In this document: positions 2,236 through 56,936 of the stretch, in pieces | How positions within the stretch are numbered: the first letter of the stretch is position 1 | Layout: each line of letters opens with the position of its first letter | Source of the DNA: an uncultured Bacteroidota bacterium | GTDB lineage: Bacteria > Bacteroidota > Bacteroidia > Bacteroidales > GCA-2748055 | Reading direction: 5' to 3' | Length of the DNA: 64,000 nt | Assembly (NCBI GenBank): GCA_937129385.1 | Contig: CAKZNC010000100.1 | Location: 12,349 to 76,348 of the forward strand | Notes under the pieces: model-generated | Databases searched by the model: none | Seen by the model: only the letters and a program-made list of their open reading frames with translations | What the model was told of the DNA's origin: nothing | Translations under genes and position numbers: made by a program

Positions 2236-4434
2236 ATGAGTGAAAAGGAAAAAGACACTTTGAACGAAGAACAAAATTCTGCTCAGAGTGCTAATGAAAA
2301 CAACGAAAAAACCGGAAAAGAGGTAGCGGAAAACATGGAGGAAGTGGAAGCGAAGAAATCAGATGAGGTAAAAGAAGAAGCCCCGACTGCAGAAAATGCC
2401 CCTGAAGAGGCTGAAACCAAAAAAGAAGAAACTGCGAAGTCAGAACAGGCCGAAACTCCTGAAACTGCTGAAAAAGCAGATGATCCTGCTGAAAAGAAAA
2501 CAGATGAAACTGCCGAAGTGAAGGCAGAATCAAAAGAAGAAATTAAATCAGAACCCGCGGAAGCAAAAGCTGAAAAAAGCGAAACTCCTGAAGCCACTGC
2601 AGCAGAGCAAAAAACTGCCTATAATGCGGATGCTACTGAAGGTGATGCAGACTTTGACTGGGATACATTTGGTGCCGATGTTCTTGATGAAACTGTAGAA
2701 GACCAGGAGAAACTGGAGGAGTTGTACAGCAACACACTTTCAACAATTGCCGAGAATGAGGTGATTGACGGAAAAGTGATCTCCATGAACAAGCGGGAAG
2801 TCGTGATCAACATTGGTTACAAATCCGAAGGTGTTGTTTCTCTCAATGAGTTCCGCTATAATCCTGAATTAAAGGCGGGCGATACCGTTGAGGTGTATGT
2901 TGAGAGCCAGGAAGATAAGAAAGGACAGCTTGTGCTTTCCCATAAGAAAGCTCGTGCAATGAGGTCATGGGACCGTGTCAACCAGGCACTGGATCAGGAC
3001 GAAGTGATCAAAGGCTACATCAAGTGCCGTACAAAAGGAGGTATGATTGTGGATGTATTCGGTATTGAAGCGTTCCTTCCGGGTTCCCAGATCGACGTCA
3101 AGCCTATCCGCGACTATGATGCATATGTTGACAAGACCATGGAATTCAAGGTGGTGAAGATTAACCACGAATTCAAGAACGTCGTGGTATCACACAAAGC
3201 ACTGATAGAGGAAGAGCTCGAACAGCAGAAGAAAGAGATCATCGCTAAACTTGAAAAAGGCCAGGTACTTGAAGGTGCCGTCAAGAACATTACTTCATAC
3301 GGTGTATTTATCGATCTGGGTGGTGTTGACGGACTCATTCATATCACCGACCTTTCATGGGGACGAGTCAATCATCCTGAAGAGATCCTTTCACTTGATG
3401 AAAAACTCAACGTGGTGATCCTTGATTTCGATGATGATAAGAAACGTATTGCACTTGGTCTGAAACAACTTACCCCGCACCCATGGGATTCACTTGATGA
3501 AAACCTGAAAGTGGGTGACAAAGTGAAAGGAAAGGTTGTCGTTATGGCTGACTATGGAGCGTTTATAGAAATTGCTCCGGGCGTTGAAGGACTGATCCAC
3601 GTTTCAGAAATGAGCTGGTCACAGCACCTGAAGAGTGCCCAGGAATTTATGAAAGTTGGTGACGAAGTGGAAGCTGTCATCCTTACCCTGGACAGGGAAG
3701 AAAGAAAGATGTCGCTGGGCATCAAGCAACTGAAAGAAGATCCATGGGATGAAGTACAGGAAAAATTTGCTGTGGGTACGAAACATACAGCAAAAGTTCG
3801 TAACTTTACTAACTTCGGTGTGTTTGTTGAAATCGAAGAAGGCGTTGACGGCCTGATTCATATTTCAGATCTTTCATGGACGAAGAAAGTGAAACATCCG
3901 GCAGAATTTACTTCCATTGGAGCTGACATTGAGGTGGTTGTTCTGGAAATTGACATTGAAAACCGTCGATTGAGCCTTGGTCATAAACAGCTGGAAGAGA
4001 ATCCCTGGGATGTATTTGAATCAGTTTTTGAAGTTGATTCAATTCACGAAGGAACGATCGTTGAATTAATGGACAAGGGTGCAGTCGTTGCACTTCCCTA
4101 TGGTGTGGAAGGATTTGTTACTCCAAAACACCTTGTAAAGGAGGATGGATCATCTGCAAAACAGGACGAAAAATTATCTTTTAAGGTAATTGAGTTCAAT
4201 AAGTCGGCAAAAAAGATTATCTTGTCTCATAGCCGAATTCATGAAGATGAGAATAGACAGTCTTCAGGGAAGTCAGGAAAGTCAGAAAAGCAGTCTGCTG
4301 CTGCTGACACACGGAGAACGGCCAAGAAAATCAAGAGCAATCTTGAGAAAACAACGCTTGGTGACATTTCCGATCTTGCTGCACTGAAGAATGAAATGGA
4401 AGAGAATGAGAAGAATAAGGCTGGAAAAAAGTAA
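2236..4434 (+). CDS. rpsA: 30S ribosomal protein S1 with ~135-aa acidic N-terminal extension
   Basis: 732-aa ORF with six S1/OB repeats, e.g. GKVISMNKREVVINIGYKSEGVV, GAVKNITSYGVFIDLGGVDGLIHITDLSW, GKVVVMADYGAFIEIAPGVEGLIHVSEMSW and AKVRNFTNFGVFVEIEEGVDGLIHISDLSW. Confidence 0.93.
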   Translation: MSEKEKDTLNEEQNSAQSANENNEKTGKEVAENMEEVEAKKSDEVKEEAPTAENAPEEAETKKEETAKSEQAETPETAEKADDPAEKKTDETAEVKAESKEEIKSEPAEAKAEKSETPEATAAEQKTAYNADATEGDADFDWDTFGADVLDETVEDQEKLEELYSNTLSTIAENEVIDGKVISMNKREVVINIGYKSEGVVSLNEFRYNPELKAGDTVEVYVESQEDKKGQLVLSHKKARAMRSWDRVNQALDQDEVIKGYIKCRTKGGMIVDVFGIEAFLPGSQIDVKPIRDYDAYVDKTMEFKVVKINHEFKNVVVSHKALIEEELEQQKKEIIAKLEKGQVLEGAVKNITSYGVFIDLGGVDGLIHITDLSWGRVNHPEEILSLDEKLNVVILDFDDDKKRIALGLKQLTPHPWDSLDENLKVGDKVKGKVVVMADYGAFIEIAPGVEGLIHVSEMSWSQHLKSAQEFMKVGDEVEAVILTLDREERKMSLGIKQLKEDPWDEVQEKFAVGTKHTAKVRNFTNFGVFVEIEEGVDGLIHISDLSWTKKVKHPAEFTSIGADIEVVVLEIDIENRRLSLGHKQLEENPWDVFESVFEVDSIHEGTIVELMDKGAVVALPYGVEGFVTPKHLVKEDGSSAKQDEKLSFKVIEFNKSAKKIILSHSRIHEDENRQSSGKSGKSEKQSAAADTRRTAKKIKSNLEKTTLGDISDLAALKNEMEENEKNKAGKK

Positions 4435-4464
4435 TGTATTACAATAAAAATTAAAATTTCAGCT

Positions 4465-4812
4465 ATGGAGTTCAAAATTGACAAATTTGAAAACCATACT
4501 TTGATCAAAGTATTGGAAGAAAAACTGGATACGCATATCGCCCCGACACTTAAGTCGGAGCTGGTACTTGTTTCCGGGAATGGCGAAAAAAATATCGTGC
4601 TCGATCTCGAGAACTGTCGCTATTGTGATTCTTCTGGTCTGAGTGCGATCCTGGTGGCCAACAGGCTTTGCAAAAATGCAAGCGGTACATTTGTGCTGGC
4701 AGGACTGAATGATGCAGTGGAAAGACTGATCACAATCTCTCAACTCGATACGGTTCTGAACATTGCAGATTCTGTGGACGAGGCAGAAAAAATGATCAAG
4801 GAAGCTGAGTAA
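4465..4812 (+). CDS. STAS-domain protein (anti-sigma-factor antagonist family)
   Basis: 115-aa ORF of SpoIIAA/RsbV-like size and pattern. The conserved phospho-Ser motif is present in LDLENCRYCDSSGLSAIL. Confidence 0.85.
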   Translation: MEFKIDKFENHTLIKVLEEKLDTHIAPTLKSELVLVSGNGEKNIVLDLENCRYCDSSGLSAILVANRLCKNASGTFVLAGLNDAVERLITISQLDTVLNIADSVDEAEKMIKEAE

Positions 4813-4827
4813 ATACAGATACATTTC

Positions 4828-5754
4828 GTGTCTTTTGAACTGATAATTTTGGGTAGCAGCTCCGCATTGCCTACCTCAAAACGATCAACAACCGCTCATT
4901 TATTGAATATGAATGAGCGGTTTTTTTTGATCGATTGCGGAGAAGGTACGCAGATTCAGCTCCGTAAAAATAAACTCAGTCCGGCCCGGATCAACCATAT
5001 CTTTATTTCCCACCTGCATGGGGACCATGTTTTCGGATTGTTTGGACTGATGTCAAGCCTGGGACTGATGGGCCGCAAAGCTGTTCTGAACCTCTATGGT
5101 CCGGCTGCACTCAGGGACATGGTCGAACATCACCTGGAATTCTTTGGACCACTGCCCTACGCACTCGATTTTCATACCTGTAAGGCAGGTACCCCCATCT
5201 ATGAGGATTCCAGGAACGAGGTGATCCCCATTCGACTGAAACACAGAACCGAAACCTATGGATACCTCTTCAGGGAGAAAGCACGTATGCTCAATATTGA
5301 CAAAAAAGCCATCGACCGATACAACCTGGGCCTGGAAGATATCAAACATGTCAAGCAAGGGAAAGACCATCAAACCGATTCCGGGGAGATCATATCAAAC
5401 AGCGATCTTACACTTCCTCCATATAAACAACGCTCCTATGCATTCCTTTCGGATACCGGCTATGATCCGGGAATCCCTGAATTAATACGGGAGGTCGATC
5501 TGCTGTACCATGAGGCAACTTTCCTTGAGGCTGACAGTGATCTTGCCAGGCAGACTTTGCATTCAACAGCAAGTCAGGCCGCGATGGTAGCAAAGGAGGC
5601 CCGGGCAGGAAAATTACTGATCGGCCATTTCTCAACACGGTATAAATCTGAAAATGACTTTATCTCGGAAGCAGGTCAGATCTTTGAGAATGTTACCGCT
5701 GTGAACGATGGTGACCGATTCACTCTTGATCTTACCAGGGTCAGGAAGGAATGA
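4828..5754 (+). CDS. rnz: Ribonuclease Z (tRNA 3' endonuclease)
   Basis: 308-aa ORF with a GTG start. Metallo-beta-lactamase HLHGDH motif, and an N-terminus (LIILGSSSALPTSKRSTTAHLL...FLIDCGEGTQ) typical of RNase Z. Confidence 0.9.
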   Translation: MSFELIILGSSSALPTSKRSTTAHLLNMNERFFLIDCGEGTQIQLRKNKLSPARINHIFISHLHGDHVFGLFGLMSSLGLMGRKAVLNLYGPAALRDMVEHHLEFFGPLPYALDFHTCKAGTPIYEDSRNEVIPIRLKHRTETYGYLFREKARMLNIDKKAIDRYNLGLEDIKHVKQGKDHQTDSGEIISNSDLTLPPYKQRSYAFLSDTGYDPGIPELIREVDLLYHEATFLEADSDLARQTLHSTASQAAMVAKEARAGKLLIGHFSTRYKSENDFISEAGQIFENVTAVNDGDRFTLDLTRVRKE

Positions 5755-5825
5755 TTTATTCAGGGCATTCCTTCGTGGACATATAAAATGTGCTAATTTT
5801 ACGGTTTTAAAAATCATATATTATT

Positions 5826-7355
5826 GTGGCAGAGAAAATACTTATCCTGGACTTCGGATCTCAATATACACAGCTGATCGCACGTAAAGTGAGGGAAAAC
5901 AATGTCTATTGTGAAATACATCCCTATAATGCCTACCCTGAACCGGATGAAGATGTAAAAGGAGTCATCCTCTCCGGAAGTCCGTTCTCGGTCAGGGATG
6001 ACAATGCACCAATCCCAGATATAACCTCCATCAAAGGCAAACTCCCGCTCCTGGGAATCTGCTATGGAGCGCAATATCTCTCCCATTATTATGGTGGCGA
6101 AGTAGCTGCATCAGATTCCAGGGAATATGGAAGGGCCAGGCTGAACAGTATCGATTCCACAAATGTATTGCTGAAAGATATTCCCATACAGACACAGGTG
6201 TGGATGTCTCATGGTGATACGATCCGGAATCTTCCTGAAAAGTGCCAAGTCATTGCCAGCACTGGAGATGTGGAGGTAGGTGCTTATGCATCAAAGGATG
6301 AACCTACATTCGGATTGCAGTTCCACCCAGAAGTATACCATACAACAGAAGGAAAAAAGATCCTGGGTAATTTCCTGCGGGATATTTGTGGATGCCACCA
6401 GGAGTGGACTCCCGAGTCTTTCATCGAGGCAACCGTGTCGGAGTTGAAAAGAAAGCTAGGTAGTGACAATGTGGTGCTGGGCCTGTCAGGAGGAGTGGAT
6501 TCTTCAGTTGCCGCGATGCTCCTTCACAAGGCAATAGGACCACAGCTCACCTGTATCTTCGTAGATAACGGATTGCTGAGAAAAAATGAGTTTGAGGAAG
6601 TCCTGGTATCATATAAGGATATGGGACTGAATGTTGTCGGGGTTGACGCAAAGGAAAAATTCCTTGCCGACCTGAAGGGAATCAGTGACCCTGAACTGAA
6701 AAGAAAAAGCATCGGTAAAAATTTTATAGAAGTATTCGAGTCTGAAGCTAAAAAGCTCAAACAGATCAAATGGCTGGGCCAGGGAACCATCTACCCCGAT
6801 GTGATCGAGTCTGTCTCCGTAAACGGACCCTCTGTGACCATCAAATCTCATCATAATGTGGGCGGTCTTCCTGAGAAGATGAACCTTAAGGTGGTGGAGC
6901 CGCTGAGACTTCTTTTCAAAGATGAAGTGAGAAAAGTCGGGTATAAACTGAAAATTGGAAGCCATATCCTGAAAAGACACCCATTCCCGGGCCCCGGACT
7001 TGGAATCAGGGTATTGGGCGAAGTAACGCCAGAAAAAGTCGGGCTCGCCCAGGAGGCGGACCACATTTTTATCCGTGGACTTAAGGAATATGGTTTGTAT
7101 GACCGTGTCTGGCAAGCAGGAGCAATGCTACTTCCGGTACAATCGGTCGGTGTAATGGGGGATGAACGTACCTATGAATTTGTTGTGGCCCTCCGGGCAG
7201 TAACTGCAACGGATGGTATGACGGCAGACTGGGCCCATCTTCCAGATGCATTCCTGAGTAAGGTATCCAACGATATCATCAACAAGGTTCGGGGAATCAA
7301 CCGGGTGGTCTATGATATCAGCTCCAAGCCACCTGCCACCATCGAATGGGAGTAA
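5826..7355 (+). CDS. guaA: GMP synthase (glutamine-hydrolysing)
   Basis: 509-aa ORF with a class-I amidotransferase domain (LLGICYGAQ), the ATP-PPase P-loop GLSGGVDSS, and the C-terminal end ...[10 protein letters not shown]. Confidence 0.95.
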
Positions 7356-10943: not shown

Positions 10944-10973
10944 TTTGTGCTGCAAGATTTTTTTTTATATTTG
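10944..10973 (+). promoter_or_regulatory. Candidate Bacteroidota sigma-A promoter (-33 TTTG / -7 TATATTTG)
   Basis: TTTG at 10944..10947 and TATATTTG at 10966..10973 are separated by 18 nt. The site is 49 nt upstream of the ATG at 11022. Confidence 0.45.
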
Positions 10974-11021: not shown

Positions 11022-11579
11022 ATGAGCTTTGATGTAAACGAGTACTACTCTAAACTAAACGGTGACGACGTGCTGATTGCCTATAAGGGTAATGTCTCCA
11101 GTGAGTTGATCAGCAACGTCCTTGAAGTTGTTGAAGCTCGTATGGATGATTACAGCGAGGCATCCAAGATCCGTAAGAAAGTCTACAATGTGCTGGTAGA
11201 AAGTCTTCAAAACCTTTACCATCATATCGAAGTGCTTCCACCAGAATTACAGAAGGATTTCGATGAAAAATTCGGGATTCTCGTCGTTTCAAGGGTAGAG
11301 GCACAATACAAGATATCAACCGGCAATTTTATTGAAACAGAAAAGGTGGCACAGTTGAAGGGGAAGATCGATAAGATCAATTCCATGAGTGCGGATGAAC
11401 TGAAAGATATGTACAAATTCATCCTCAACCACCAACGGCTGTCCGAAAAGGGAGGAGGAGGACTTGGTCTTGTTGATATAGCAAGGAAAACAGGGAATAA
11501 ACTGGAATACAAATTTCACCAGTTCAGTGATGAATATGCATTCTTTAACCTGGATGTATTTATTGATTATGAAGATTGA
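11022..11579 (+). CDS. SiaB-like GHKL-type protein (Ser/Thr) kinase
   Basis: 185-aa ORF with an N-box-like VLVESLQNLYHH and the glycine-rich ATP lid EKGGGGLGLVDIARKTG. Paired with a DUF1987 gene 24 nt downstream. Confidence 0.7.
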   Translation: MSFDVNEYYSKLNGDDVLIAYKGNVSSELISNVLEVVEARMDDYSEASKIRKKVYNVLVESLQNLYHHIEVLPPELQKDFDEKFGILVVSRVEAQYKISTGNFIETEKVAQLKGKIDKINSMSADELKDMYKFILNHQRLSEKGGGGLGLVDIARKTGNKLEYKFHQFSDEYAFFNLDVFIDYED

Positions 11580-11603
11580 ATATAACTTTTTAAAATTCAA
11601 AAT

Positions 11604-11984
11604 ATGGAACCATTGTTGATTGAAGGAACTGCAAAAACACCTACTGTTAAATTTGACGCCGGGGATGGTGTTGTTGAGATCAAAGGAAGATCTATTCCAG
11701 AAAATTCGATCGAATTTTATAAACCACTGGTTGAATGGTTGGAGGAATACAGTGCGGCACCTCAGAATCTGACACAGGTGAATGTGCAACTGGAATATTT
11801 CAATACCAGTTCCTCAAAATGTATCCTGGATGTCTTCAAGAAACTGGAAGCCATTCATAAAGGTAAAAATGAGGTGATTATTAACTGGCATTACGAAGAG
11901 GATGATGAAGACATGCTCGAGGCTGGAGAAGATTATGAATCCATCATCAGGGTTCCCTTCAAGATGATCGAGATCGTCGAATAA
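11604..11984 (+). CDS. DUF1987 / SiaC-like regulatory phosphoprotein
   Basis: 126-aa ORF with hallmark DUF1987 features: N-terminus TPTVKFDAGDGVVEIKGRSIPEN, the segment FYKPLVEWLEEY, YFNTSSSK with Thr at residue 68, and an acidic WHYEEDDEDMLE segment. Confidence 0.75.
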   Translation: MEPLLIEGTAKTPTVKFDAGDGVVEIKGRSIPENSIEFYKPLVEWLEEYSAAPQNLTQVNVQLEYFNTSSSKCILDVFKKLEAIHKGKNEVIINWHYEEDDEDMLEAGEDYESIIRVPFKMIEIVE

Positions 11985-12007: not shown

Positions 12008-12041
12008 TGCCATCACGGGAAGCCGGGGTGGCATTTTTTTT
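12008..12041 (+). terminator. Rho-independent terminator after the SiaB/C-like pair
   Basis: The imperfect hairpin TGCCATCACGGG...CCGGGGTGGCA is followed by T8. Confidence 0.6.
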
Positions 12042-12085: not shown

Positions 12086-15000
12086 CTAACCTCTTTTGAA
12101 AAGGTTTTCAAATAAATCTAGCGCTCTTTTCAGTACCCTGTAATAAAGCAGGATGTATAACACAATCGTCATTAGCCAGATCACAATTATATTGACCCAT
12201 ATCGTGGGTATATAGGTTCCGAAAACCATCTTCCTGGGTGCATAGAAGTGTGCTTTAATGAAATTTGACCGGGGATCATTGTAAATAGGGTCAGTTTTCT
12301 GAATCAGCTTTCCTTTGAATTCAACGATCTTTTCAAACTCATTTTTATTGGTAACAAATTCTTCCAGGCTGCTATTGTGGTGATTTCGCTTGAGCGCCTG
12401 GAGCTTCTCAAGTTCAAAGCCCTGCTTGATCTCATTGCTCTCACGGAATGCCTTGCGATATGCCTCTGTATAAGCCTCTGAAAGTGCGCGGATGTATGCA
12501 GCTGTGTAATCAAGGATCTCATCGTTGATACGATCTGGATACAGGGAATCGATATATTTCATCTTCCCTATCTTGATGCCTTCACTGTATTCATTGAATA
12601 CCTGCCTGTCCTCATACTCCTTCTTCAGTTCATTCCTGATCAGATCAAGGTGGTTGGCAACCAGTTCGGTTTTTTCAGGATCCCGGTAACTTTCCCTGAC
12701 CACATTGAGCTTGTTCTCAATATTTTTCAACAGGTAATTGGAAGCAAACCCGGTCACGCTTTTTTTCTTTTCGGCCAGGTAAAAGTGCTTCTGGTAATCA
12801 TTCTCCTTGAACTGGTAGGTGGCAAGTGCCTCGTATGCCCAACGTGCGGTAATGATCTCACCATAGAACGGGATCCTGTCCGGTTCAGAAATCTTGGGAT
12901 TCAGGTTTTCAAATTTAACAATGATCCCGCTTAAAATAATTTGTGGGATCACCAGAAAGGGGATGAGAATATAAATGGCTACGACGGTCTTAAAACTATC
13001 GGATATAAGCAGCCCCATCACATTGGCTGATGCCCAGGCAGAGAACAGTACCAGCCAGTATTCGAAATACATGCCCCTGATCTCCATGATGCTGTTTCCG
13101 ATCAGTACAAATGTCGCTGCCTGTACAGCCGACAGGATAAGCTGAACGGCGACTTTGGAGAGTAAGTATCCCGACCAGCTGAGGTTCAGGAATGCTTCTC
13201 TTTTCAATATTTTCCGGTCCTTGATGATCTCCTCTGCACTCACTGAAAGCCCCATAAAAATCGCAACGATCACAGACATAAAAATGTATACAGGGAGATT
13301 GCTGTTTTCCGCAAGCGTATAATCAAATTTGTTGGTAACAGAGACACTGTAATATTTGACGATAAAGGCAAGCAGAAATGCAAGCAGGGGCGCCTCGAGG
13401 AAATTGATGATCATGTACTGTGTATCACTGATCTTTTTCAGTATGTCCCTTTTCAGGAATACCAGGAATTGCCTGAAGCGCGAAGGAGTTTTGAATGAGA
13501 TCTCGGGGAGGTCCTCCCTGGTGGCAGTTGGCTGCATCGCCTCCTGGTAGTCTTCCTTGAAATGGTAGCTCCACTGCTGTGGAGAGATCTTTCTTGTGTG
13601 GGTAACCTTCCCATATTCATCCAGAACACTTGTTTCCACGATATTAAAAACCTGTTCCGGGTTTACATTCCCGCATTCGTGGCACTCACTCTCATTCCAG
13701 TCGGCATGCTGCACTTTCGTTTTGAAATACTGGATGGAATCAATGGGATTCCCATTGTAAATGAGGTACCCCCCGGTATCCAGGATCAGAAGCCTGTCAA
13801 ACATCTTGAAAATATCGGAAGAGGGTTGGTGAATGACAACAAATACCAGCTTCCCTTTCAGCGACAATTCCTTCAGAAGATCCAGGATATTCTCGCTGTC
13901 CCTGCTGGAAAGACCTGAAGTGGGCTCATCCAGGAAAAGCACCGCGGGTTCACGGATCAGCTCCAGGGCGATATTCAGCCGCTTTCTTTGTCCGCCGCTG
14001 ATCTTCTTGTTCAGGGGAGACCCGACCTGGATCTCACGAATTTCATACAGTCCGAGGTTTTTTAAAACATTGTTTACAGCGGCCTCCAGCTGCTCATCAC
14101 TGTAATTGTCAAAACAAAGCTTCGCATTGTAATACAGGTTCTGGTAGACCGTCAACTCTTCGATCAGGAGGTCGTCCTGGGATACGAAACCAATGATACC
14201 GTTCACTGCAGGATCGTCACTGTGGATATCGATGCCATTTATAAGGACCGATCCTTCCGTTGGGGTATTGCTTCCGTTCAGCACATTAAGAAGCGTTGAT
14301 TTGCCTGCACCGCTTGCCCCCATGATTCCAACCAGTCGGCCCGAAGTCTCTGTAAAGCTGATGTCATGCAGACCAATGGCTCCGTTTGGAAATTTGTAAA
14401 CGATTTGATTGGCCTGGAAAACGATCCTGGACTTCACCCGGTCTTCCACGAATGAACTTACAATGTCGCTGTAATAGATGGGAATGATCTGCTGGTTCCT
14501 GATAGAGGCGCCGGTATTCAGCGGGTAGGTTTTGTATTGTTCAAGCAGCTGACCGTTAATGTAGATTTCAGCCTGTCCGATGTATTTGACAAAATAGAGG
14601 TTGGTGGATAGAATATGCAACACCCGCATCTGTCCCGAGAGGTTTTTGCGCTGGATATGTTTAGCCCCGCCCGGCAGATTCCGCCCTTTCTCCGTATCAT
14701 CCACAAAAAGGAAATGTGAAGAGGAGGCAAGCTTTTTGTCGTTGAGAACGAATTCCCTTATCGAATTGTATTCCTCGATGTTGATATTGAATGTGTCAGA
14801 TACCGTCGACACAAACTCCATCTCCTGGTCTGTCACCACATCGGCATCGGATTTGATGAACTCAAGCAGCTGTATCAGGAATACCACCTTCTGCTGCTGG
14901 GTAAGCTCTTCGTTGATGTTGGTACATATCTTGAGAACCCTTACCGATCTGCGCGCAAGGATACGGCCTGCATTCTGTGATTTTTTCTCGTCCTCTTCGG

Positions 15001-15172
15001 CGAACTTGCTGACAAACTCATCATAAATATTCAGGAATTCTTCTGCGAGTTCCCTGTTAAGCTGCTTGATCAAAAATGATTCTACTACTGCACGGCGGTC
15101 ATCAACTGAGCTTTCAGGTCTGGCAATGATGGCAAACAGCTGCATCAGCGCCTTGAGAATCTTTTCACTCAT
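12086..15172 (-). CDS. ABC-G-type transporter (NBD-TMD fusion) with N-terminal regulatory modules and C-terminal extension
   Basis: 1028-aa ORF with Walker A GASGAGKST, signature ISGGQRKR and Walker B VLFLDEPTSGLS, followed by an ABC-2-type multi-TM region. About 250 aa precede the NBD and about 230 aa follow the TMD, ending in one more TM helix. Confidence 0.85.
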   Translation of the reverse strand: MSEKILKALMQLFAIIARPESSVDDRRAVVESFLIKQLNRELAEEFLNIYDEFVSKFAEEDEKKSQNAGRILARRSVRVLKICTNINEELTQQQKVVFLIQLLEFIKSDADVVTDQEMEFVSTVSDTFNINIEEYNSIREFVLNDKKLASSSHFLFVDDTEKGRNLPGGAKHIQRKNLSGQMRVLHILSTNLYFVKYIGQAEIYINGQLLEQYKTYPLNTGASIRNQQIIPIYYSDIVSSFVEDRVKSRIVFQANQIVYKFPNGAIGLHDISFTETSGRLVGIMGASGAGKSTLLNVLNGSNTPTEGSVLINGIDIHSDDPAVNGIIGFVSQDDLLIEELTVYQNLYYNAKLCFDNYSDEQLEAAVNNVLKNLGLYEIREIQVGSPLNKKISGGQRKRLNIALELIREPAVLFLDEPTSGLSSRDSENILDLLKELSLKGKLVFVVIHQPSSDIFKMFDRLLILDTGGYLIYNGNPIDSIQYFKTKVQHADWNESECHECGNVNPEQVFNIVETSVLDEYGKVTHTRKISPQQWSYHFKEDYQEAMQPTATREDLPEISFKTPSRFRQFLVFLKRDILKKISDTQYMIINFLEAPLLAFLLAFIVKYYSVSVTNKFDYTLAENSNLPVYIFMSVIVAIFMGLSVSAEEIIKDRKILKREAFLNLSWSGYLLSKVAVQLILSAVQAATFVLIGNSIMEIRGMYFEYWLVLFSAWASANVMGLLISDSFKTVVAIYILIPFLVIPQIILSGIIVKFENLNPKISEPDRIPFYGEIITARWAYEALATYQFKENDYQKHFYLAEKKKSVTGFASNYLLKNIENKLNVVRESYRDPEKTELVANHLDLIRNELKKEYEDRQVFNEYSEGIKIGKMKYIDSLYPDRINDEILDYTAAYIRALSEAYTEAYRKAFRESNEIKQGFELEKLQALKRNHHNSSLEEFVTNKNEFEKIVEFKGKLIQKTDPIYNDPRSNFIKAHFYAPRKMVFGTYIPTIWVNIIVIWLMTIVLYILLYYRVLKRALDLFENLFKRG

Positions 15173-16439: not shown

Positions 16440-16778
16440 TCACTGAAAACTGTCCAGGCAATCTTTGCAGTGATCATAGATCTCAAAAACATTGTGTAGT
16501 TGCAACACCTTGAAAAGCTCCTTAACCTCCGGATTGACATTGCAGATTTTTAGCTCACCATAGTTGTTATTGGCCGCCTTCATCAATGAAAGAAATACAC
16601 TGAAACCAGAGCTGTCAATAAATTTAATCCCGGCAAGATCGATGACCAACCGGGTATTTGGCTTGCTGTAATAGGCGAGCAGTTTTTCTTTTACCGGTTC
16701 GGTGATCAATCCGTTAAACCTGTCTTCCCCGGTGAAACTGGCTACCAGGATGCCCTGCTTTTCATTAACTTCGATCAT
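16440..16778 (-). CDS. STAS-domain protein (anti-sigma-factor antagonist family)
   Basis: 112-aa ORF with IDLAGIKFIDSSGFSVFL, which carries the conserved DSSG phospho-Ser motif. Lies 3 nt downstream of the Hpt gene. Confidence 0.85.
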   Translation of the reverse strand: MIEVNEKQGILVASFTGEDRFNGLITEPVKEKLLAYYSKPNTRLVIDLAGIKFIDSSGFSVFLSLMKAANNNYGELKICNVNPEVKELFKVLQLHNVFEIYDHCKDCLDSFQ

Positions 16779-16781
16779 GTT

Positions 16782-17123
16782 TTAGCTCTTTGAGAGATAT
16801 TGCTCCAATTCAATGAGTGCGTAACCTGAATTTTCTATAAAAGTATCGATAAGCTCTTTATAGGATTCCGGCTCAAGCCCTTCCTTGGATTTGAACTCCA
16901 GCTCTTTTAGCCGGTCCGCCTCGGATTGCATTCCCATGACTGCAACAGATGATTTGGCTTTATGTGCGACACGTGATAGATTCTCGTAATCAGATGCTTG
17001 CAGCAGCCTGGGCATCTCAATACTGTATTCTTCAATCTGTTCACGGAATATGTCGACCATTTCCCTGATGAATTTGTGGTCGTTTCCCGACATCGATTCC
17101 AGGTATGAAAGGTCTGTGATCAT
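16782..17123 (-). CDS. Hpt (histidine phosphotransfer) domain protein
   Basis: 113-aa helical protein with the Hpt signature LSRVAHKAKSSVAVMG (HxxKxS). Confidence 0.8.
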   Translation of the reverse strand: MITDLSYLESMSGNDHKFIREMVDIFREQIEEYSIEMPRLLQASDYENLSRVAHKAKSSVAVMGMQSEADRLKELEFKSKEGLEPESYKELIDTFIENSGYALIELEQYLSKS

Positions 17124-39182: not shown

Positions 39183-39965
39183 TCAATCACCAAATTCCTC
39201 TTCCAGTTTCTGGGTCAGGATCTTGATCCCGATATTTTTCTGAAGGATTCCGTTTTCGGCGATGGAGATCTGTCCTGTTTCCTCGGATACAATGACCACA
39301 AGTGAATCGGTTACCTCCGATATACCTAATGCGGCGCGGTGGCGGAGTCCGTACTCGGGAGGCAGGTTGGGTTTATCTGTAACGGGAAGAATCACACGGG
39401 CCGCCACCAACTGGTCCCGGTCGATTACGATTGCTCCATCGTGCAACGGACCGGTCTTATTGAATATGCTTGTGATAAGTCTGCTAGAGGTATGACTGTA
39501 CAATACCTCTGCCGATTCGGTATACATTTTCAGGTTGGACTTCCTCCGGATGACGATCAGTGCACCGGTCTTTGTCTGGGCCATCTGCATCACAGCCTTC
39601 AGTACTGATTTGATCGGAATCCTGGGTTTCGACTCAAATCTCATGTTGAAAAAACGATCCAGGCTGATCATGTTCCCGTCGACATATCTCGATCCCATGT
39701 AGATCAGGAATCGCCGTATCTCCTGCTGGAATACGATGATCAGTGCGATTACCCCCACACCGATCACCTGCCCGATGATCGAGCTGAGCAGTTCCATCTG
39801 GAGTGCTCTTACTATCCACCAGAACAGGTAGATCACTGCGATGACAACGATAATGTTCAGCGCCACCGTACCCCTGACAAGCATGTACAGCTGGTACAGG
39901 AGTATCGCTACTAGTAGGATATCGATGATATCCAGCAACCGGATATGAATGAATAGTGGCGTCAT
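39183..39965 (-). CDS. cdaA: Diadenylate cyclase CdaA (c-di-AMP synthase)
   Basis: 260-aa ORF with three N-terminal TM helices and a DAC domain carrying the DGA (LHDGAIVI) and RHR (GLRHRAALG) motifs. Confidence 0.88.
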   Translation of the reverse strand: MTPLFIHIRLLDIIDILLVAILLYQLYMLVRGTVALNIIVVIAVIYLFWWIVRALQMELLSSIIGQVIGVGVIALIIVFQQEIRRFLIYMGSRYVDGNMISLDRFFNMRFESKPRIPIKSVLKAVMQMAQTKTGALIVIRRKSNLKMYTESAEVLYSHTSSRLITSIFNKTGPLHDGAIVIDRDQLVAARVILPVTDKPNLPPEYGLRHRAALGISEVTDSLVVIVSEETGQISIAENGILQKNIGIKILTQKLEEEFGD

Positions 39966-45939: not shown

Positions 45940-48900
45940 ATGAAAAAGCTCTTTTCCATTGCCATTTTCACCCTGACATTTACCATTTCATATAGCCAGT
46001 ATGTCCGTGAATTTTCCCAGGATACTTCAAATTACATCCAGGAATTGACAACCCTATTCGGCACATCACTGATGGATGACGAAGATCCGGTTTTTAATGG
46101 ATTTATATCTACCTGGGACTCACTGGATCATCAAAACCGGGTGGAAATAATGGAGATCTCCGAGCTGATGAGGCAGCGCAGTTGCCGGCCACGCCCCCAC
46201 TATATTATGTTCCTCAGGATCCTGGAAGAGTTTCATCGTGAGGGGAAACTGGATCTGGGTTATGACAATTGGATCGAGGGCTACAGGAGTTTCATGGAAA
46301 ACGAGAATACATTGCTTAAGGAGATCGCTAATGTGAACAATACCGTCTTCCTGATGCTGGATCAATCCATGTTCTACAATTCATCTTCACTCTCATGGAA
46401 GATGCTGGAACAGTCTTTCGACTTCGTATATGATGATCGTGTGAAGATCTTCACATCGGGGAACACACTTGTCGGTATTTCCTCGGGTGACAGCATCATG
46501 GTGCATGATGTATCAGGATATGTAGACCCTGTGAGTCAGGTATTTGTAGGAACATCCGGGCGGGTATTCTGGGATCGTGCCGGCCTGAGCCGCGATACTG
46601 TTTTTGCGAAACTTCAGAACTACCGGCTCCTGTTCAGCAGGCCGGAATATAAGGCAGACTCTGCAATATTTGAGCATCGGTTATTGATTGATGATCCCAT
46701 AATTGGCATCCTGGAGGACAGGATCACCAGGATTAAAAATCCTGAAGCGGCAAAATATCCCCAGTTCAAAAGTTACAAGAGCAGTTATGTGCTGAATGAA
46801 GTCGTTGAGGGAATTGATTACCGGGGTGCAATCTCCATGCAGGGTGCAAATCTTGCAGGCACTGGAATCCGGGGTAACAATGCACTTTTAGAGATATCCA
46901 ATAATGACACGGTAAGGGTTTCAATGCGCTCAGAAGTTTTTCTATTTGGAAAGAACAGTATCATGTCTCCAAGTGCAGAAGTTGCAGTATATATTGAAAA
47001 TGATTCGATCTATCATCCCGACCTGTTAATGAATTATACTATTGCGAGGGAATTGCTGCGATTGACCCGATCTGACGATTACAATTCACAGGGACCCTAC
47101 TCCAATTCTTATCACCAGGTTGACATGAGCTTTGATGAATTGAACTGGGTGAGAACTGAACCGGTCATAAGGATGCAAGCCGCACTTGGGACTTCCCTTG
47201 GAAATGGATTTTTTGAATCCAATGATTTTTTCGATATGAAAGTCTATGAAAGTTTGCAGGGTATGGATTATCAAAACCCGCTTGCCGACTTGTGGACCTT
47301 TGGCGATATGCTCGGAGGAAGTACTTTTGCGGTTGAATCCTTTGCCTCCTATATGGGGAAGGCAGCTTATATGATCAGGCACCAGTTGATGCAGTTCACA
47401 AAGCTGGGGTTTGTCTATTTTGATTTTGAAAGAGATATGGTGACTCTCAGACCAAAACTTTATGATTTCATTGAAGCAAGCCTTAAAAGGAGAGACTATG
47501 ATGTGATCCGCTTCATCTCGCGTACAAGTGGAGGTAATGAAAATGCCTTGCTTGACCTGACGACAAAAGATCTGACGATAAACGGGATCCCAAATATTTT
47601 CCTGAGCGACTCACAAAACGTAAGGCTGGTGCCCAGGAGAAACCAGATCATTATGAAAAGAAACAGGAATTTCCAGTTCGATGGCGTTATCGATGCAGGT
47701 CTTTTTAAATTCTATGGTCAGAATTTCTTTTTTGAATACGACAGCTTTAAGATCAACCTGCAGAACATTGATTCGTTGTCTATCAGTGCAAAAATAGATA
47801 AACGTGATGCAACCGGACGTTTTCTGACAACCGAGCTGGACAACAAGATCGAGAATATTACCGGGGAACTGCTGATAGATGCACCGGTGAATAAGTCTGG
47901 ACTGGAATCCTATCCCGAGTACCCGATCTTTACAAGCCGGGAAGGATCTTCTGTTTACTTTGATGAAAAAAGTATCCAGGATGGTGTCTACGACAGGAAA
48001 AGATTCTACTTTGAACTTTCCCCGTTTACCATCGACAGTCTGGATAATTTTACAAGGGAGGCACTGAAGATGGATGGGACATTTGTCTCGGCTGGAATTC
48101 TTCCTCCAATGGAAATGGAGATGTCGCTCAGGCCAGACAATTCACTTGGCTTCTATATGCGCACTCCTGAAGAGGGCATTGATGTATTTGGCGGCAAGGC
48201 GATTTTCTACAACGACATAGAGATGAGTAGCGCTGGTTTGCATGGCTATGGGTCCCTCGATTACCTGACTTCCACAACATGGTCGGATGATTTCCTTTTC
48301 CATCCGGATTCTATCATGACGATCTCCAGGAGGTTTCTTGAGCGTGAGCAATCGGATAGGCAATCCTATCCGTATGTTGAAAATACCACAACAGGAATTA
48401 CCTATCATCCCCACGAGGATGTCATGCGCATCAGGCGGTTGGAGGATGTGTTTAAAATATATACCGACAGTACCTTCTTCGGAGGAAACCTGGCATTACG
48501 TCCGGCGGGATTATCCGGAGACGGAACGCTTGTCTTTCCGGATGCAAGGTTTGAATCTGAAGTCTTCAGTTTTAATGACCAGGACTTTAATGCCGATTCG
48601 GCCGGCGTGCAATTCAGGAAGGCTCAGGACGAAGATTATACCTTCATTACCGATGACCTTGAAATTGATGTAGACCTGGTAAAGCGGGAGGGCGATTTTA
48701 CTGCCAGGGCAGACAATACCCTGGTGAGCATGCCTGAGAATATGTACCAGACCAGGATTGACCAGGTAAAATGGTTGATGGATCGAGATGAGGTAAGGAT
48801 GTCCCAGGTCAAAATGTTGCCCGAAAATGATCTGCATTCCGGGATTGATTCCCTGGATATCAATGCGCCCTCGTACATATCGACAAACCCGCAGCAGGAT

Positions 48901-50406
48901 TCACTTCATTTTGCTGCTCCAATTGCATATTTTAATTACGGAGATGGTCTCCTGAATGCAGAGCAGGTGCCTTTTATGGCCATCGGGGATGCATTCATCT
49001 TTCCAGACAGCGGGAAGGTGCAGATACTGCAAAAAGCCACTATCAAGCCCCTGAGGCGGGCTAAACTGCTGGCCAATACCGATTCACATTATCACCTGAT
49101 GCACAGTGCCAACCTTGTGGTGGATTCCAGGATCCATTACAGGGGGTCCGCCGATTATGACTATGTAGATGAATTTGGCAATGTGTACACATTCAGAATG
49201 GATCATGTTGAAGTGGATACTTCGATCCGCAGTTTCGGTATAGGACAGGTTGCTGAAACAGATTCCTTCAGGCTAAGTCCCTATTATGATTACCAGGGAG
49301 AAATCAGGATGCAGGCACAAAAGCCATTTCTCGATTTTGCAGGAGGTGTCAGGCTGACTCATGACTGTAATGTCCGTAAATACTACCTCAAATTCGAGTC
49401 TGAGATCAATCCGGACAGTATCCTGATACCGGTGGAAAGGCCAATGCAGAATATTGCGCTGAATAATATATATGCAGGCACACTAAAAGCAAGGGACTCG
49501 ATCCACATCTATCCCACTTTCATGTCTGGGCGCAAAGACTACTTCGACAGGAATGTTACATATGCGAATGGGTATCTGTATTACGACAAGACCACCAATA
49601 GTTATGAGATCGCCGATTCTGCGAAACTGGCAGACAGCAAGAATGGGGGTAACTATCTTGCACTCAGGACCGATTCTTGTGACTTGTACAGTGAGGGATT
49701 GATTGATCTCAATATTGAATTTGGCAGGATCAGCTTGAAATCGGTTGGGAATGCCACACATAAGATCGATCCGAATACCTTGAAGCTGAACCTGGTCATG
49801 GGAATGGACTTCTATTTTAGTCAGGATGCACTGAATATATTTGGCAGGGAAATGGACAGTCTTCCAGGCCTCGATCCCGTTGACCTGACGACATCGTTCT
49901 ATCAGCAGGCGATAACCGATCTTGCAGGAAGGGCTCAGGCAGAAAAGCTGGATACTGAGCTTGGGCTCTATGGCAGCTATTCAGAAATTCCGGACAGCCT
50001 GGATTTTTCGATCTTGTTTAACGACCTGTCCCTGGAGTGGAACCAGGAAACCCGATCCTTCAGGCACAATGGAAAAGTAGGGATTGGAATTATCGGAGAT
50101 GTACAGGTAAACCGTAAAGTTGATGCGTACGTTGAATTCGTTGAGCGGGGGTCAGGAGATATCTTTGATATTTACCTACAGGTGGATGACAATACATGGT
50201 ATTATATGGCATACAGTCCGGGAGGCTTCCAGGTATTATCCTCCAACCAGCAATTCAATGACCTGATTTTTGGTTTGCCTGCCAAGGAACGTAGACTTAA
50301 GTCCAGGGGACGGCAACCTTCCTACATTTATTCACTTGCTTCCAGCAGGCGAATGGCACTGTTCCTGGACAGGTTCAGGATGTTTGATGAGCAGGAACAG
50401 GAATAG
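45940..50406 (+). CDS. Very large (1488 aa) secreted protein of unknown function
   Basis: Uninterrupted 4.5-kb ORF with the signal peptide MKKLFSIAIFTLTFTISYSQ. I recognise no catalytic or repeat motif. Confidence 0.8.
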   Translation: MKKLFSIAIFTLTFTISYSQYVREFSQDTSNYIQELTTLFGTSLMDDEDPVFNGFISTWDSLDHQNRVEIMEISELMRQRSCRPRPHYIMFLRILEEFHREGKLDLGYDNWIEGYRSFMENENTLLKEIANVNNTVFLMLDQSMFYNSSSLSWKMLEQSFDFVYDDRVKIFTSGNTLVGISSGDSIMVHDVSGYVDPVSQVFVGTSGRVFWDRAGLSRDTVFAKLQNYRLLFSRPEYKADSAIFEHRLLIDDPIIGILEDRITRIKNPEAAKYPQFKSYKSSYVLNEVVEGIDYRGAISMQGANLAGTGIRGNNALLEISNNDTVRVSMRSEVFLFGKNSIMSPSAEVAVYIENDSIYHPDLLMNYTIARELLRLTRSDDYNSQGPYSNSYHQVDMSFDELNWVRTEPVIRMQAALGTSLGNGFFESNDFFDMKVYESLQGMDYQNPLADLWTFGDMLGGSTFAVESFASYMGKAAYMIRHQLMQFTKLGFVYFDFERDMVTLRPKLYDFIEASLKRRDYDVIRFISRTSGGNENALLDLTTKDLTINGIPNIFLSDSQNVRLVPRRNQIIMKRNRNFQFDGVIDAGLFKFYGQNFFFEYDSFKINLQNIDSLSISAKIDKRDATGRFLTTELDNKIENITGELLIDAPVNKSGLESYPEYPIFTSREGSSVYFDEKSIQDGVYDRKRFYFELSPFTIDSLDNFTREALKMDGTFVSAGILPPMEMEMSLRPDNSLGFYMRTPEEGIDVFGGKAIFYNDIEMSSAGLHGYGSLDYLTSTTWSDDFLFHPDSIMTISRRFLEREQSDRQSYPYVENTTTGITYHPHEDVMRIRRLEDVFKIYTDSTFFGGNLALRPAGLSGDGTLVFPDARFESEVFSFNDQDFNADSAGVQFRKAQDEDYTFITDDLEIDVDLVKREGDFTARADNTLVSMPENMYQTRIDQVKWLMDRDEVRMSQVKMLPENDLHSGIDSLDINAPSYISTNPQQDSLHFAAPIAYFNYGDGLLNAEQVPFMAIGDAFIFPDSGKVQILQKATIKPLRRAKLLANTDSHYHLMHSANLVVDSRIHYRGSADYDYVDEFGNVYTFRMDHVEVDTSIRSFGIGQVAETDSFRLSPYYDYQGEIRMQAQKPFLDFAGGVRLTHDCNVRKYYLKFESEINPDSILIPVERPMQNIALNNIYAGTLKARDSIHIYPTFMSGRKDYFDRNVTYANGYLYYDKTTNSYEIADSAKLADSKNGGNYLALRTDSCDLYSEGLIDLNIEFGRISLKSVGNATHKIDPNTLKLNLVMGMDFYFSQDALNIFGREMDSLPGLDPVDLTTSFYQQAITDLAGRAQAEKLDTELGLYGSYSEIPDSLDFSILFNDLSLEWNQETRSFRHNGKVGIGIIGDVQVNRKVDAYVEFVERGSGDIFDIYLQVDDNTWYYMAYSPGGFQVLSSNQQFNDLIFGLPAKERRLKSRGRQPSYIYSLASSRRMALFLDRFRMFDEQEQE

Positions 50407-55552: not shown

Positions 55553-55996
55553 CTAATCGTCTTTAAAGCCAAACATAATGGCTACGCAACCCTCTTCGGG
55601 CTCTACGATATTTTCATCTGCGACAGGTACCTTGATCACGATCTTCAGTTGCTGACTTGATTCAAGGCGAAAATCCCACATCCATTCATAATCCTGGTAC
55701 TTGTTGTTATACAAGACCTTTCCGTTGCTGTCCACAATCTTAAATTCAATATCATTCAGGTTTCCGGCACCACAAACTCCGATTCGGTAATCGGTATCTG
55801 AATAAAATGTTTTATATAACTCGGCTTCTTCACCTTCTATCAGCAATGCTGCATGATAATTCCCGTCATGCTGGTACGGATTGAGTCCCACCTTACAGGT
55901 TTTTTTTGCGAACTGTTTACATTGGGACTGCGCAAGTTGAGGTATCGAAACCATTATCGCAACAAGAGAAACTAAAAGTATGCCTTTTCTCATCAT
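55553..55996 (-). CDS. Secreted hypothetical protein (147 aa)
   Basis: Has the signal peptide MMRKGILLVSLVAIMVSIPQLAQSQ and a beta-rich sequence. Lies 10 nt downstream of the lipoprotein gene. I recognise no family. Confidence 0.6.
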   Translation of the reverse strand: MMRKGILLVSLVAIMVSIPQLAQSQCKQFAKKTCKVGLNPYQHDGNYHAALLIEGEEAELYKTFYSDTDYRIGVCGAGNLNDIEFKIVDSNGKVLYNNKYQDYEWMWDFRLESSQQLKIVIKVPVADENIVEPEEGCVAIMFGFKDD

Positions 55997-56006
55997 GATG
56001 TTGTAT

Positions 56007-56936
56007 TTAAGATATATAGCTGTTTCTTAACTCGGTTACTTTCTGAACTAGCTCGTCGAAAACGGGCTTTGTGAGGTTGTGTGAAGAGCTGGATTTCAGG
56101 GTCGTAACATTCGTTTCAGGATCGGTAACGGGCGTATTCTCACCAAGAGTGATCTCGATCTTATCGAATGTTGTTTTCAGCTGTCTGATATCTTCAAGGA
56201 TCTTCTGGGCATCCGGATCTTCACTGGATTCCTGCAGGAGGTTGATCATAAAGTCTACAGATAATTTTTGATCTACTACCCGCTCCACGATCCTGTTGCT
56301 CTCAATGGGATCGTCTCCCACCAGCTGTGTTGCGATATAGAGTCCTTCAACCCATCCGCCGACGAGAATGATAGTGGCAGTGCTTTCGAGTCCTCTTTCC
56401 TTTAGGTAAGAACTTGAGTTGAGCAAAGTCTCGGAGATGATATCAACGATGATCTCCCGGTTATTGATATTGTTTTCGAGCCGCTGGATTGTATTCTCAT
56501 TAATTGCATCCAGGATATTAAGCCCGTCGGCCAGGTTTTTTGCAACTTCAATGTAATTAAGTGTTACCTGGGTTTGGTCGAACAGACTGGCATAGCTGAG
56601 ATCAGTGGTATAAATCCCCAGGTTCAGTGCCATGTCAAGATTAGTGATGTAACCTGTCTGGTTGTCGATCGGGTTCAGCAGACTTGCATCATAAGTAGCG
56701 CCGGCCTTTTGGAGGATCTTTGCTGTTTCAATGGGAGAGGGGAGGGAATAGAAAATCCGTTTTGCAGTCTGGAATTTTTCTTTGGTACCTTCATCGACGC
56801 TGGTAATGAATTCATCCTGCTCACCTGCATTCTCATCTGTTTTTTTTGCTCCCTGGTTACAGCTGGTAACGCTGAAGGCAATGATAACGGTCAGAAGAAT
56901 GAGAGCTTTTCCGGTAACTGGAAGATTTTTGCTCAT
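56007..56936 (-). CDS. Hypothetical lipoprotein (309 aa)
   Basis: Has the lipobox LTVIIAFSVTSC and a predominantly helical sequence. I recognise no family. Confidence 0.6.
   Translation of the reverse strand: MSKNLPVTGKALILLTVIIAFSVTSCNQGAKKTDENAGEQDEFITSVDEGTKEKFQTAKRIFYSLPSPIETAKILQKAGATYDASLLNPIDNQTGYITNLDMALNLGIYTTDLSYASLFDQTQVTLNYIEVAKNLADGLNILDAINENTIQRLENNINNREIIVDIISETLLNSSSYLKERGLESTATIILVGGWVEGLYIATQLVGDDPIESNRIVERVVDQKLSVDFMINLLQESSEDPDAQKILEDIRQLKTTFDKIEITLGENTPVTDPETNVTTLKSSSSHNLTKPVFDELVQKVTELRNSYIS

Follow-up and report, generated by a model that had tools for sequence, protein, structure and literature searches.

What does a phosphorylation switch control when nothing encoded beside it resembles an output? 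Sia-type switches are known experimentally only as diguanylate cyclase regulators in Pseudomonas, and the question is raised by a kinase–phosphoprotein gene pair found in a stretch of 64,000 nucleotides (nt) from an uncultured Bacteroidales bacterium of the Bacteroidota (contig CAKZNC010000100.1 of assembly GCA_937129385.1, positions 12,349 to 76,348 of the forward strand; this whole stretch is referred to below as the window). A sequence-only reading of the window had picked out a SiaB-like kinase gene followed by a DUF1987 (SiaC-like) gene, had described the pair as a stand-alone unit lacking both the phosphatase and the output enzyme, and had left its target open. Here we argue that the pair is probably a Sia-type phospho-switch operon whose partner is not a cyclase and whose sensor phosphatase is likely to be unlinked. 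The features on which this argument draws are the following.

10944..10973 (+), predicted Bacteroidetes-type promoter: -33 box TTTG at 10944..10947, 18 nt, and -7 box TATATTTG at 10966..10973
11022..11579 (+), gene for a SiaB-family (DUF6272) GHKL-like Ser/Thr kinase of 185 amino acids, called from profiles, motifs and predicted fold
11199..11225 (+), kinase N-box, E60-x2-Q63-N64-x2-H67-H68
11448..11468 (+), kinase G-box, K143-GGGGLG
11604..11984 (+), gene for a SiaC-family (DUF1987) regulatory phosphoprotein of 126 amino acids, called from Pfam and from the alignment to Pseudomonas aeruginosa SiaC (PaSiaC)
11805..11807 (+), codon of the predicted phospho-acceptor T68, inside the invariant block E64-E82
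12008..12033 and 12034..12041 (+), hairpin followed by T8, resembling an intrinsic terminator, between the convergent SiaC-like and ABC genes

The first gene had been read as encoding a GHKL-type, SiaB-like kinase with the motifs ESLQNLYHH and GGGGLGLVDIARKTG. Both are present in the product of the open reading frame (ORF) at 11022..11579, and profile searches place this protein far above the curated cut-offs of Pfam PF19788 (DUF6272; E=7e-40, 136.2 bits against a cut-off of 26.6) and of NCBIfam NF038262, "SiaB family protein kinase" (160.6 bits, cut-off 85). Alignment to SiaB (6KKO_A) by phmmer (E=1.8e-10) brings the N-box and the G-box into register, with VESLQNLYHH pairing with SiaB IEMTQNIRHY and GGGGLGLVDIARK with SGAGLGLLDIARK. 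Among 28 single-domain relatives aligned, with identities down to 38%, the columns of E60, Q63, N64, H67, H68, N102, G144, L148 and G149 are without variation, and it is from this family invariance and from analogy with GHKL enzymes that the putative catalytic residues are assigned. No HATPase_c-type Pfam model matches the kinase at E<=1. The GHKL label is supported by the AlphaFold2 model (predicted local distance difference test score 85.4, predicted TM-score 0.82), whose top PDB match in Foldseek is SiaB itself (6KKO_A; E=2.7e-11, TM-scores 0.76/0.83, 24% identity in the structural alignment), followed by SpoIIAB, RsbW and UsfX and then by histidine-kinase ATP-binding (CA) domains. The window kinase thus resembles its homologue in the P. 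aeruginosa SiaABCD system in fold, N-box and G-box, and as in that system the kinase gene is followed by the gene for the substrate.

Membership of the second protein in the DUF1987 family is equally secure, the match to Pfam PF09345 covering profile positions 1-119 of 120 (E=9e-45, 151.6 bits, threshold 24.5). Neither protein reaches the equivalog models of NCBIfam that define the Pseudomonas proteins proper, the kinase scoring 78.5 bits where NF038264 (SiaB) needs 225 and its neighbour 100.9 bits where NF038265 (SiaC) needs 150, and both should therefore be regarded as members of the two families rather than as orthologues of Pseudomonas SiaB and SiaC. Residues 2-120 of the SiaC-like protein nevertheless align to PaSiaC (6KKO_C/6K4F; phmmer E=1.7e-20) without any gap, so that its residue numbering is that of PaSiaC. 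The correspondence between the threonine at residue 68, in YFNTSSSK, and T68 of PaSiaC, which had been put forward from an unverified alignment, consequently holds: Y65, N67, T68 and S69 fall on the PaSiaC phospho-site and the neighbouring residues named with it (PMC8457831). The Y-x-N-T-S loop, with its Thr at the start of helix alpha2, is retained and identical at Y65-x-N67-T68-S69; L63 and W95 of the hydrophobic pocket are kept as well, and T68 is present without exception in 145 unique SiaC orthologues. SiaC is structurally STAS-like (PMC7647112), and the STAS Pfam model (PF01740) does not match the window protein at E<=1. By comparison with this system, the kinase would be expected to phosphorylate the adjacent DUF1987 protein on its threonine.

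A search of 1.84 billion representatives returned 3,167 family members, among which DUF6272-DUF6272-SiaC fusions in a single chain of about 500 amino acids (P0138, P0159, P0200) provide Rosetta-stone evidence that the kinase–substrate relationship is physical. Many other members, of about 370 amino acids, consist of two tandem DUF6272 domains (e.g., P0122, P0125). No description of either the tandem or the SiaC-fused architecture was found in the literature searched.

The most informative property of the pair is the uneven way in which its two proteins, and the parts of the SiaC-like protein, have been conserved. Over 65 loci whose kinase is 50–60% identical to that of the window, the median identity to the window is 80% for SiaC, 77% for rpsA, 72% for guaA, 56% for the ABC gene, 49% for the S41 peptidase gene and 43% for RlmL, the kinase itself having a median of about 55%; at kinase identities of 38–50%, SiaC is still 73% identical. 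In this Bacteroidales-wide orthogroup the rate at which SiaC evolves is as low as that of ribosomal protein S1, and conservation across the orthogroup is far higher than in SiaABCD. Positions with at least 98% identity make up 43% of SiaC in the 145 unique orthologues, and they include the whole E64-E82 block and the acidic helix W95...Y111.

This constraint coexists with a diverged target face. In PaSiaC, 12 residues contact the stalk of SiaD (PMC8457831). The window protein keeps four of them, all in the phospho-loop (Y65, N67, T68, S69), and has changed the other eight (Q10A, D29R, Y31I, I71S, M75L, R103D, L107A, E110D), with two charge reversals (D29R, R103D). Five of these replacements, D29R, Y31I, I71S, R103D and L107A, are fixed at 97–100% in the 145 orthologues, and two of the positions differ with linkage to a cyclase: I71 and R103 are found in the cyclase-linked SiaCs of Pseudomonas and Azospirillum, S71 and D/E103 in four SiaCs from Bacteroidota. 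Since the residues with which PaSiaC grips SiaD have been replaced by different but invariant ones, a different and conserved target is indicated. The simplest reading of the sequences is that the phospho-switch has been preserved while its binding partner is another, likewise conserved, protein.

How far the locus itself lacks the remaining components of a Sia system was established both in the window and in its relatives. The protein collection holds more than 2,800 relatives of the kinase; the 120 best-matching clusters, each with 77% identity or more, come without exception from Bacteroidales or from Bacteroidota metagenome-assembled genomes. Syntenic loci numbered 85, five taken from encoding contigs and 80 from species-representative genomes, with SiaB identities of 52–88%. 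They share a block with the order rpsA, STAS, RNase Z, guaA, S41 peptidase, (PnuC), RlmL, SiaB, SiaC, convergent ABC, ..., STAS, Hpt, and the whole 20 kb from rpsA to gcvT is kept syntenic down to 52% SiaB identity. Because this block includes housekeeping genes (rpsA, guaA), adjacency to RlmL, ABC, STAS or Hpt genes says little about function, and with the whole block syntenic the inference of partners from lineage synteny was dropped in favour of more distant loci.

The claim that neither a PP2C/SpoIIE phosphatase nor a GGDEF protein is encoded anywhere in the 64 kb is borne out by every search made: Pfam finds neither domain among all called genes of the window, no GG[DE]EF motif occurs in any of its six frames, and a local SpoIIE hidden Markov model (HMM) and a GGDEF phmmer search gave no match in the window's six-frame ORFs of at least 60 amino acids. 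The same HMM, built from phosphatase domains recovered in this analysis, was run on 168 loci, where it and the GGDEF search matched only the positive controls, including the Azospirillum locus, and the loci of a sister clade described below. The absence is not peculiar to the window, where it might have been put down to rearrangement, as none of the 85 syntenic loci has a PP2C/SpoIIE or GGDEF gene within 10 kb on either side. Complete or near-complete genomes with the bare pair include OW818650.1, OY970276.1, CBDDKV010000002.1 and CAVZPP010000002.1. The extra genes that some of them carry (ClpB, a flavin reductase, a NadR-like AAA_28 protein, DPP-IV, MatE) include no phosphatase or cyclase, and no GGDEF motif or domain was found in any of about 165 orthogroup loci, 80 of them metagenome loci. 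GGDEF proteins are few or lacking in many Bacteroidia, the phylum being largely without cyclic di-GMP signalling, and a non-cyclase partner fits with this scarcity.

For the phosphatase the picture changes once the more distant loci are considered. A metagenome scan seeded with intermediate relatives recovered a sister clade in which the genes run from a Reg_prop-Y_Y_Y-transmembrane-SpoIIE phosphatase through a lipoprotein to SiaB and SiaC. This order was seen in L127, L137, L144, L146, L160, L163, L164 and L168 and independently confirmed on L171, for which gene calls of the Joint Genome Institute (JGI) were available. The phosphatase, of 1064–1114 amino acids (in L146 encoded at 3657-7001), has Reg_prop beta-propeller repeats, a Y_Y_Y domain, a single transmembrane segment and a C-terminal SpoIIE domain; Reg_prop/Y_Y_Y is the type of sensor that Bacteroidota use for glycans. 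Sister-clade SiaB and SiaC are 41–45% and 71–76% identical to the window proteins, and the SiaC carries the same R29, I31, S71, D103 and A107. Like the window, the sister-clade operon is without a cyclase or a conserved output gene, the genes 3′ of SiaC being variable housekeeping genes; unlike the window, it has the phosphatase and lipoprotein genes directly 5′ and no RlmL/ABC neighbours. Neither the window nor any of the 85 syntenic loci encodes a homologue of the phosphatase or of the lipoprotein. "Stand-alone" is therefore an apt description of the locus and not necessarily of the system: the existence of a linked SpoIIE phosphatase in the sister clade makes it most likely that the phosphatase is unlinked here, rather than absent.

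The lipoprotein of the sister clade (cluster c2; L146:7073-7918 (+) and 11 other loci) is a predicted protein of about 280 amino acids without a Pfam match, and it is always encoded between the sensor phosphatase and the SiaB-like kinase. It was considered as an output and rejected, since its signal peptide and lipobox cysteine indicate an extracytoplasmic protein, more likely a co-sensor; it may be a periplasmic co-sensor.

Loci further afield, on annotated plasmids and chromids, present three kinds of context. In Azospirillum sp. B510 the order is HAMP-SpoIIE, SiaB, SiaC, histidine kinase, GGDEF. Persicobacter psychrovividus (Cytophagales), on pPP7, has a TPR-transmembrane-SpoIIE gene directly 5′ of SiaB and DUF1987 and no cyclase, and a plasmid of another member of the Cytophagales, Bernardetia sp. 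Wsw4-3y2 (NZ_CP147018.1), carries a bare SiaB–DUF1987 pair like that of the window, again without a diguanylate cyclase. Their neighbourhoods are both unrelated to the window's. The SiaC proteins of the two are 44% (Bernardetia) and 31% (Persicobacter) identical to that of the window and share with it S71 and D/E103; SiaB is 27% identical in Bernardetia and gives no tblastn match at E<=1e-3 in Persicobacter.

The pair had also been read as a self-contained two-gene unit, and comparison among relatives supports this. Both ORFs are found exactly at the coordinates first given and lie on the + strand, separated by 24 nt; across loci the gap between kinase stop and SiaC start is 11–30 nt, and the SiaC gene lies directly 3′ of the kinase gene in 146 of 152, an adjacency that lends indirect support to a kinase–substrate coupling. 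The candidate promoter at 10944..10973 is as had been described, its -7 box ending 48 nt before the SiaB-like start codon. The Bacteroidetes consensus is TTTG/TAnnTTTG for -33/-7, and in 80 of 84 loci TAnnTTTG occurs within the 90 nt that precede the kinase gene, a frequency to be set beside 4.7% for background windows of that length; the strict form, TTTG-N17-21-TAnnTTTG, is found in 41 of the 84 at a constant position 30–58 nt from the ATG (120 nt in one locus), all of which points to a promoter function for 10944..10973. The terminator at 12008..12041 likewise has the form given to it, with a stem (GCCAUCAC.GGG/CCG.GGGUGGC) of -15.3 kcal/mol in RNAfold; 65 of 79 loci have, no further than 110 nt past the SiaC stop, a hairpin of -8 kcal/mol or lower with a run of four or more T after it. 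With a conserved promoter and terminator of its own and a short gene gap, the pair can be regarded as a self-contained operon. A regulatory RNA in the leader or spacer was also considered and rejected, Rfam giving just a sub-threshold chance match to a snoRNA model.

Taken together, these observations suggest the following mechanism. The GHKL-like SiaB-family kinase would phosphorylate Thr68 of the STAS-like SiaC-family protein, and the unphosphorylated protein, by analogy with SiaC, would bind and regulate its partner through the alpha2/alpha3 face. In the Bacteroidales orthogroup this partner would be not a diguanylate cyclase but a different, highly conserved protein encoded elsewhere, and we propose that the conservation of this partner is the reason for the ribosomal-protein-like constraint on SiaC. 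The switch would probably be reset by a SpoIIE/PP2C membrane sensor phosphatase with a periplasmic Reg_prop/Y_Y_Y domain, most likely unlinked in the window lineage, which would remove the phosphate upon an extracytoplasmic cue. There is precedent in Anabaena for partner-switch components at unlinked loci controlling an enzyme (bioRxiv 10.64898/2026.04.08.717354), and both HenR-All4160-Alr3423 of that organism and HptB-HsbR-HsbA are enzyme-controlling variants of the partner switch. A more specific version, in which the SiaC-like protein is a hub coupling a Reg_prop/Y_Y_Y sensor phosphatase to a core target independent of cyclic di-GMP, with input, switch and output at separate loci, is a tentative one to which we give somewhat less than an even chance.

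Several points weigh against this interpretation. Phosphorylation throughout the orthogroup is deduced from sequence comparison, and the choice of the active phospho-form, and with it the direction of regulation, follows P. aeruginosa by assumption. The single conserved target is likewise postulated from the constraint on the sequence, and, in keeping with the target having been left open, none of the clades shows a conserved neighbour of the pair that could be put forward as its output. As for the phosphatase, related Y_Y_Y-SpoIIE genes do occur unlinked, amid housekeeping genes, in Bacteroidales genomes (two long-contig SpoIIE matches), but none of those found could be tied to a genome with a bare pair, and they may serve other substrates, such as the two canonical STAS proteins of the window.

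Other explanations have to be set against the same evidence. The classical partner switches SpoIIAA/SpoIIAB/SpoIIE and RsbV/RsbW/RsbU share the logic of a GHKL kinase, a small STAS-fold phosphoprotein and reversal by a PP2C/SpoIIE phosphatase, and they raise the possibility that the roles are reversed, with the kinase as the effector that sequesters a sigma factor or another protein, as SpoIIAB and RsbW do, until the unphosphorylated SiaC-like antagonist releases it. The kinase model does match SpoIIAB, RsbW and UsfX, after SiaB, at probability 1.00 (TM-scores about 0.5/0.6), the STAS-like structure of SiaC would suit such an antagonist, and neither kinase nor phosphoprotein has a neighbouring output gene. 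Yet the likeness is at the level of the fold only, the window proteins lacking the STAS and HATPase_c Pfam matches of the classical systems, and a kinase that bound the target would be expected to be the more constrained of the two proteins, which is the opposite of what is seen (55% against 80% median identity). Moreover, in the Sia paradigm, unlike the classical switch, it is the phosphoprotein that contacts the output: in the sole characterised system, that of Pseudomonas, the output binds SiaC and not SiaB (PMC7278518). Linkage of a sigma-factor gene to the pair was seen in none of about 165 loci, and the only such gene in the window, of the ECF type, is 40 kb away. A reversal of roles thus seems unlikely. 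The idea that the SiaC-like protein regulates the ABC transporter encoded convergently at 12086..15172 (-), whose 1028 amino acids are confirmed, through the conserved N-terminal cytoplasmic domain (about 260 amino acids, of unknown function) of that transporter is a quite unlikely one. This gene is the most persistent neighbour, lying convergently about 100 nt 3′ in most of the 85 syntenic loci and retained in some loci with other genes upstream (L089, L090, L102, L125, L157, L161), but the orientation means that it is not co-transcribed with the pair, and adjacency within a syntenic block that extends over rpsA and guaA is barely informative. The pair persists where the ABC gene is missing or displaced (L012, L013, L020, L021, L026, L034, L041, L047, L056) and throughout the phosphatase-linked sister clade, and elsewhere the ABC gene keeps partners of its own, c5 and c6. 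A further point against the idea is that the N-terminal domain gave no FHA or other phospho-binding signature in the Pfam and profile searches described below.

The remaining alternatives accept the locus as it stands. In a kinase-only module there would be no dedicated phosphatase, phosphorylated SiaC being reset by turnover, dilution or a promiscuous phosphatase, and regulation would fall on the activity or expression of the kinase. The lack of a phosphatase in the window and within 10 kb in its 85 relatives is what such a module would look like, and the bare pair of Bernardetia shows the same arrangement in another order. On the other hand, in every better-resolved relative (Azospirillum, Persicobacter, the sister clade) the input is a sensor-domain SpoIIE phosphatase, and Pfam finds no sensor domain in the 185-residue kinase that could take its place; we regard this reading as very unlikely. 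That the pair is a decaying, non-functional remnant left after the loss of phosphatase and output genes has the absence of those genes from the locus as its sole support, and the conservation data effectively exclude it: about 150 loci have both ORFs intact, there is no variation in the catalytic motifs or at T68, 43% of the positions in SiaC reach 98% identity or more among the 145 unique sequences, and promoter and terminator are conserved. A Sia-type switch with a non-cyclase partner and a probably unlinked sensor phosphatase consequently remains the interpretation that we favour.

A number of other genes in the window and its relatives deserve mention. The N-terminus of the ABC protein was searched for an FHA or other phosphothreonine-binding domain, which proved unsupported, with Pfam at E<=1 giving only a weak TerB-like match, and a 43-sequence profile of this region found nothing meaningful among PDB sequences (best E=0.53). 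Two genes without a Pfam match, 55553..55996 (-; 147 amino acids) and 56007..56936 (-; 309 amino acids), adjoin the 1030-residue ABC gene in other lineages (L040, L069, L078, L089, L090, L102, L104, L111, L125, L157 and L161 were compared) and lie about 40 kb from it in the window; their products may be partners of the ABC transporter separated from it by rearrangement. A canonical STAS anti-sigma-antagonist of 115 amino acids with a DSSG phospho-motif is encoded at 4465..4812 (+), directly 3′ of rpsA, and with 75–97% identity across all syntenic loci it comes close to SiaC in constraint; the 64 kb were found to encode neither a SpoIIAB/RsbW-type kinase nor a PP2C phosphatase. A second STAS protein with DSSG, at 16440..16778 (-), adjoins an Hpt phosphotransfer protein at 16782..17123 (-). 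Most syntenic loci keep this duo, which is reminiscent of the logic of HptB-HsbR-HsbA, but no receiver-PP2C protein is encoded nearby. The sole cyclic-dinucleotide synthase of the window is a CdaA-type diadenylate cyclase (CdaA_N + DAC) at 39183..39965 (-), 27 kb from the pair and showing no linkage to it in relatives. None of these genes, that is, neither of the two STAS genes nor the Hpt, ECF sigma and CdaA genes, adjoins the SiaB/SiaC pair. The guaA gene, which begins with GTG at 5826, is intact, and a 1488-residue ORF at 45940..50406 (+) matches no Pfam family at E<=1e-4. Finally, a second, divergent DUF1987 paralogue, about 33% identical, lies between guaA and the gene for the S41 peptidase in some relatives (L057:7511-7894 (+), L096); it has no kinase gene of its own, and its phospho-loop reads N-S-G-S where the orthogroup has N-T-S-S.

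Every testable element of the sequence-only reading was supported. The family assignment is not in itself new, as the NCBI pipeline already names the two proteins "SiaB family protein kinase" and "DUF1987 domain-containing protein". No published description of the orthogroup, or of any Sia-type system in Bacteroidota, was found in the literature searched. What is new is the lack of linked input and output, a constraint on SiaC at the level of a ribosomal protein, a target face that has been remodelled and then frozen, and the Reg_prop/Y_Y_Y phosphatase of the sister clade. The authors of the Pseudomonas work have proposed that DUF1987 proteins generally regulate a protein encoded beside them (PMC8457831), and the orthogroup stands as a clean counter-example, in which the core has been preserved with no output beside the pair in any clade. 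If the tentative hub version of our interpretation is true, Sia-type switches would gain a new class of output, in a phylum from which cyclic di-GMP signalling is largely missing. The invariant R29, I31, S71, D103 and A107, together with T68, offer a direct experimental handle on the partner, whose identity would reveal what abundant sediment and anaerobic Bacteroidales control through threonine phosphorylation, and would put to the test the notion that STAS-like phosphoproteins are general adaptors whose reach extends beyond sigma factors and cyclases.

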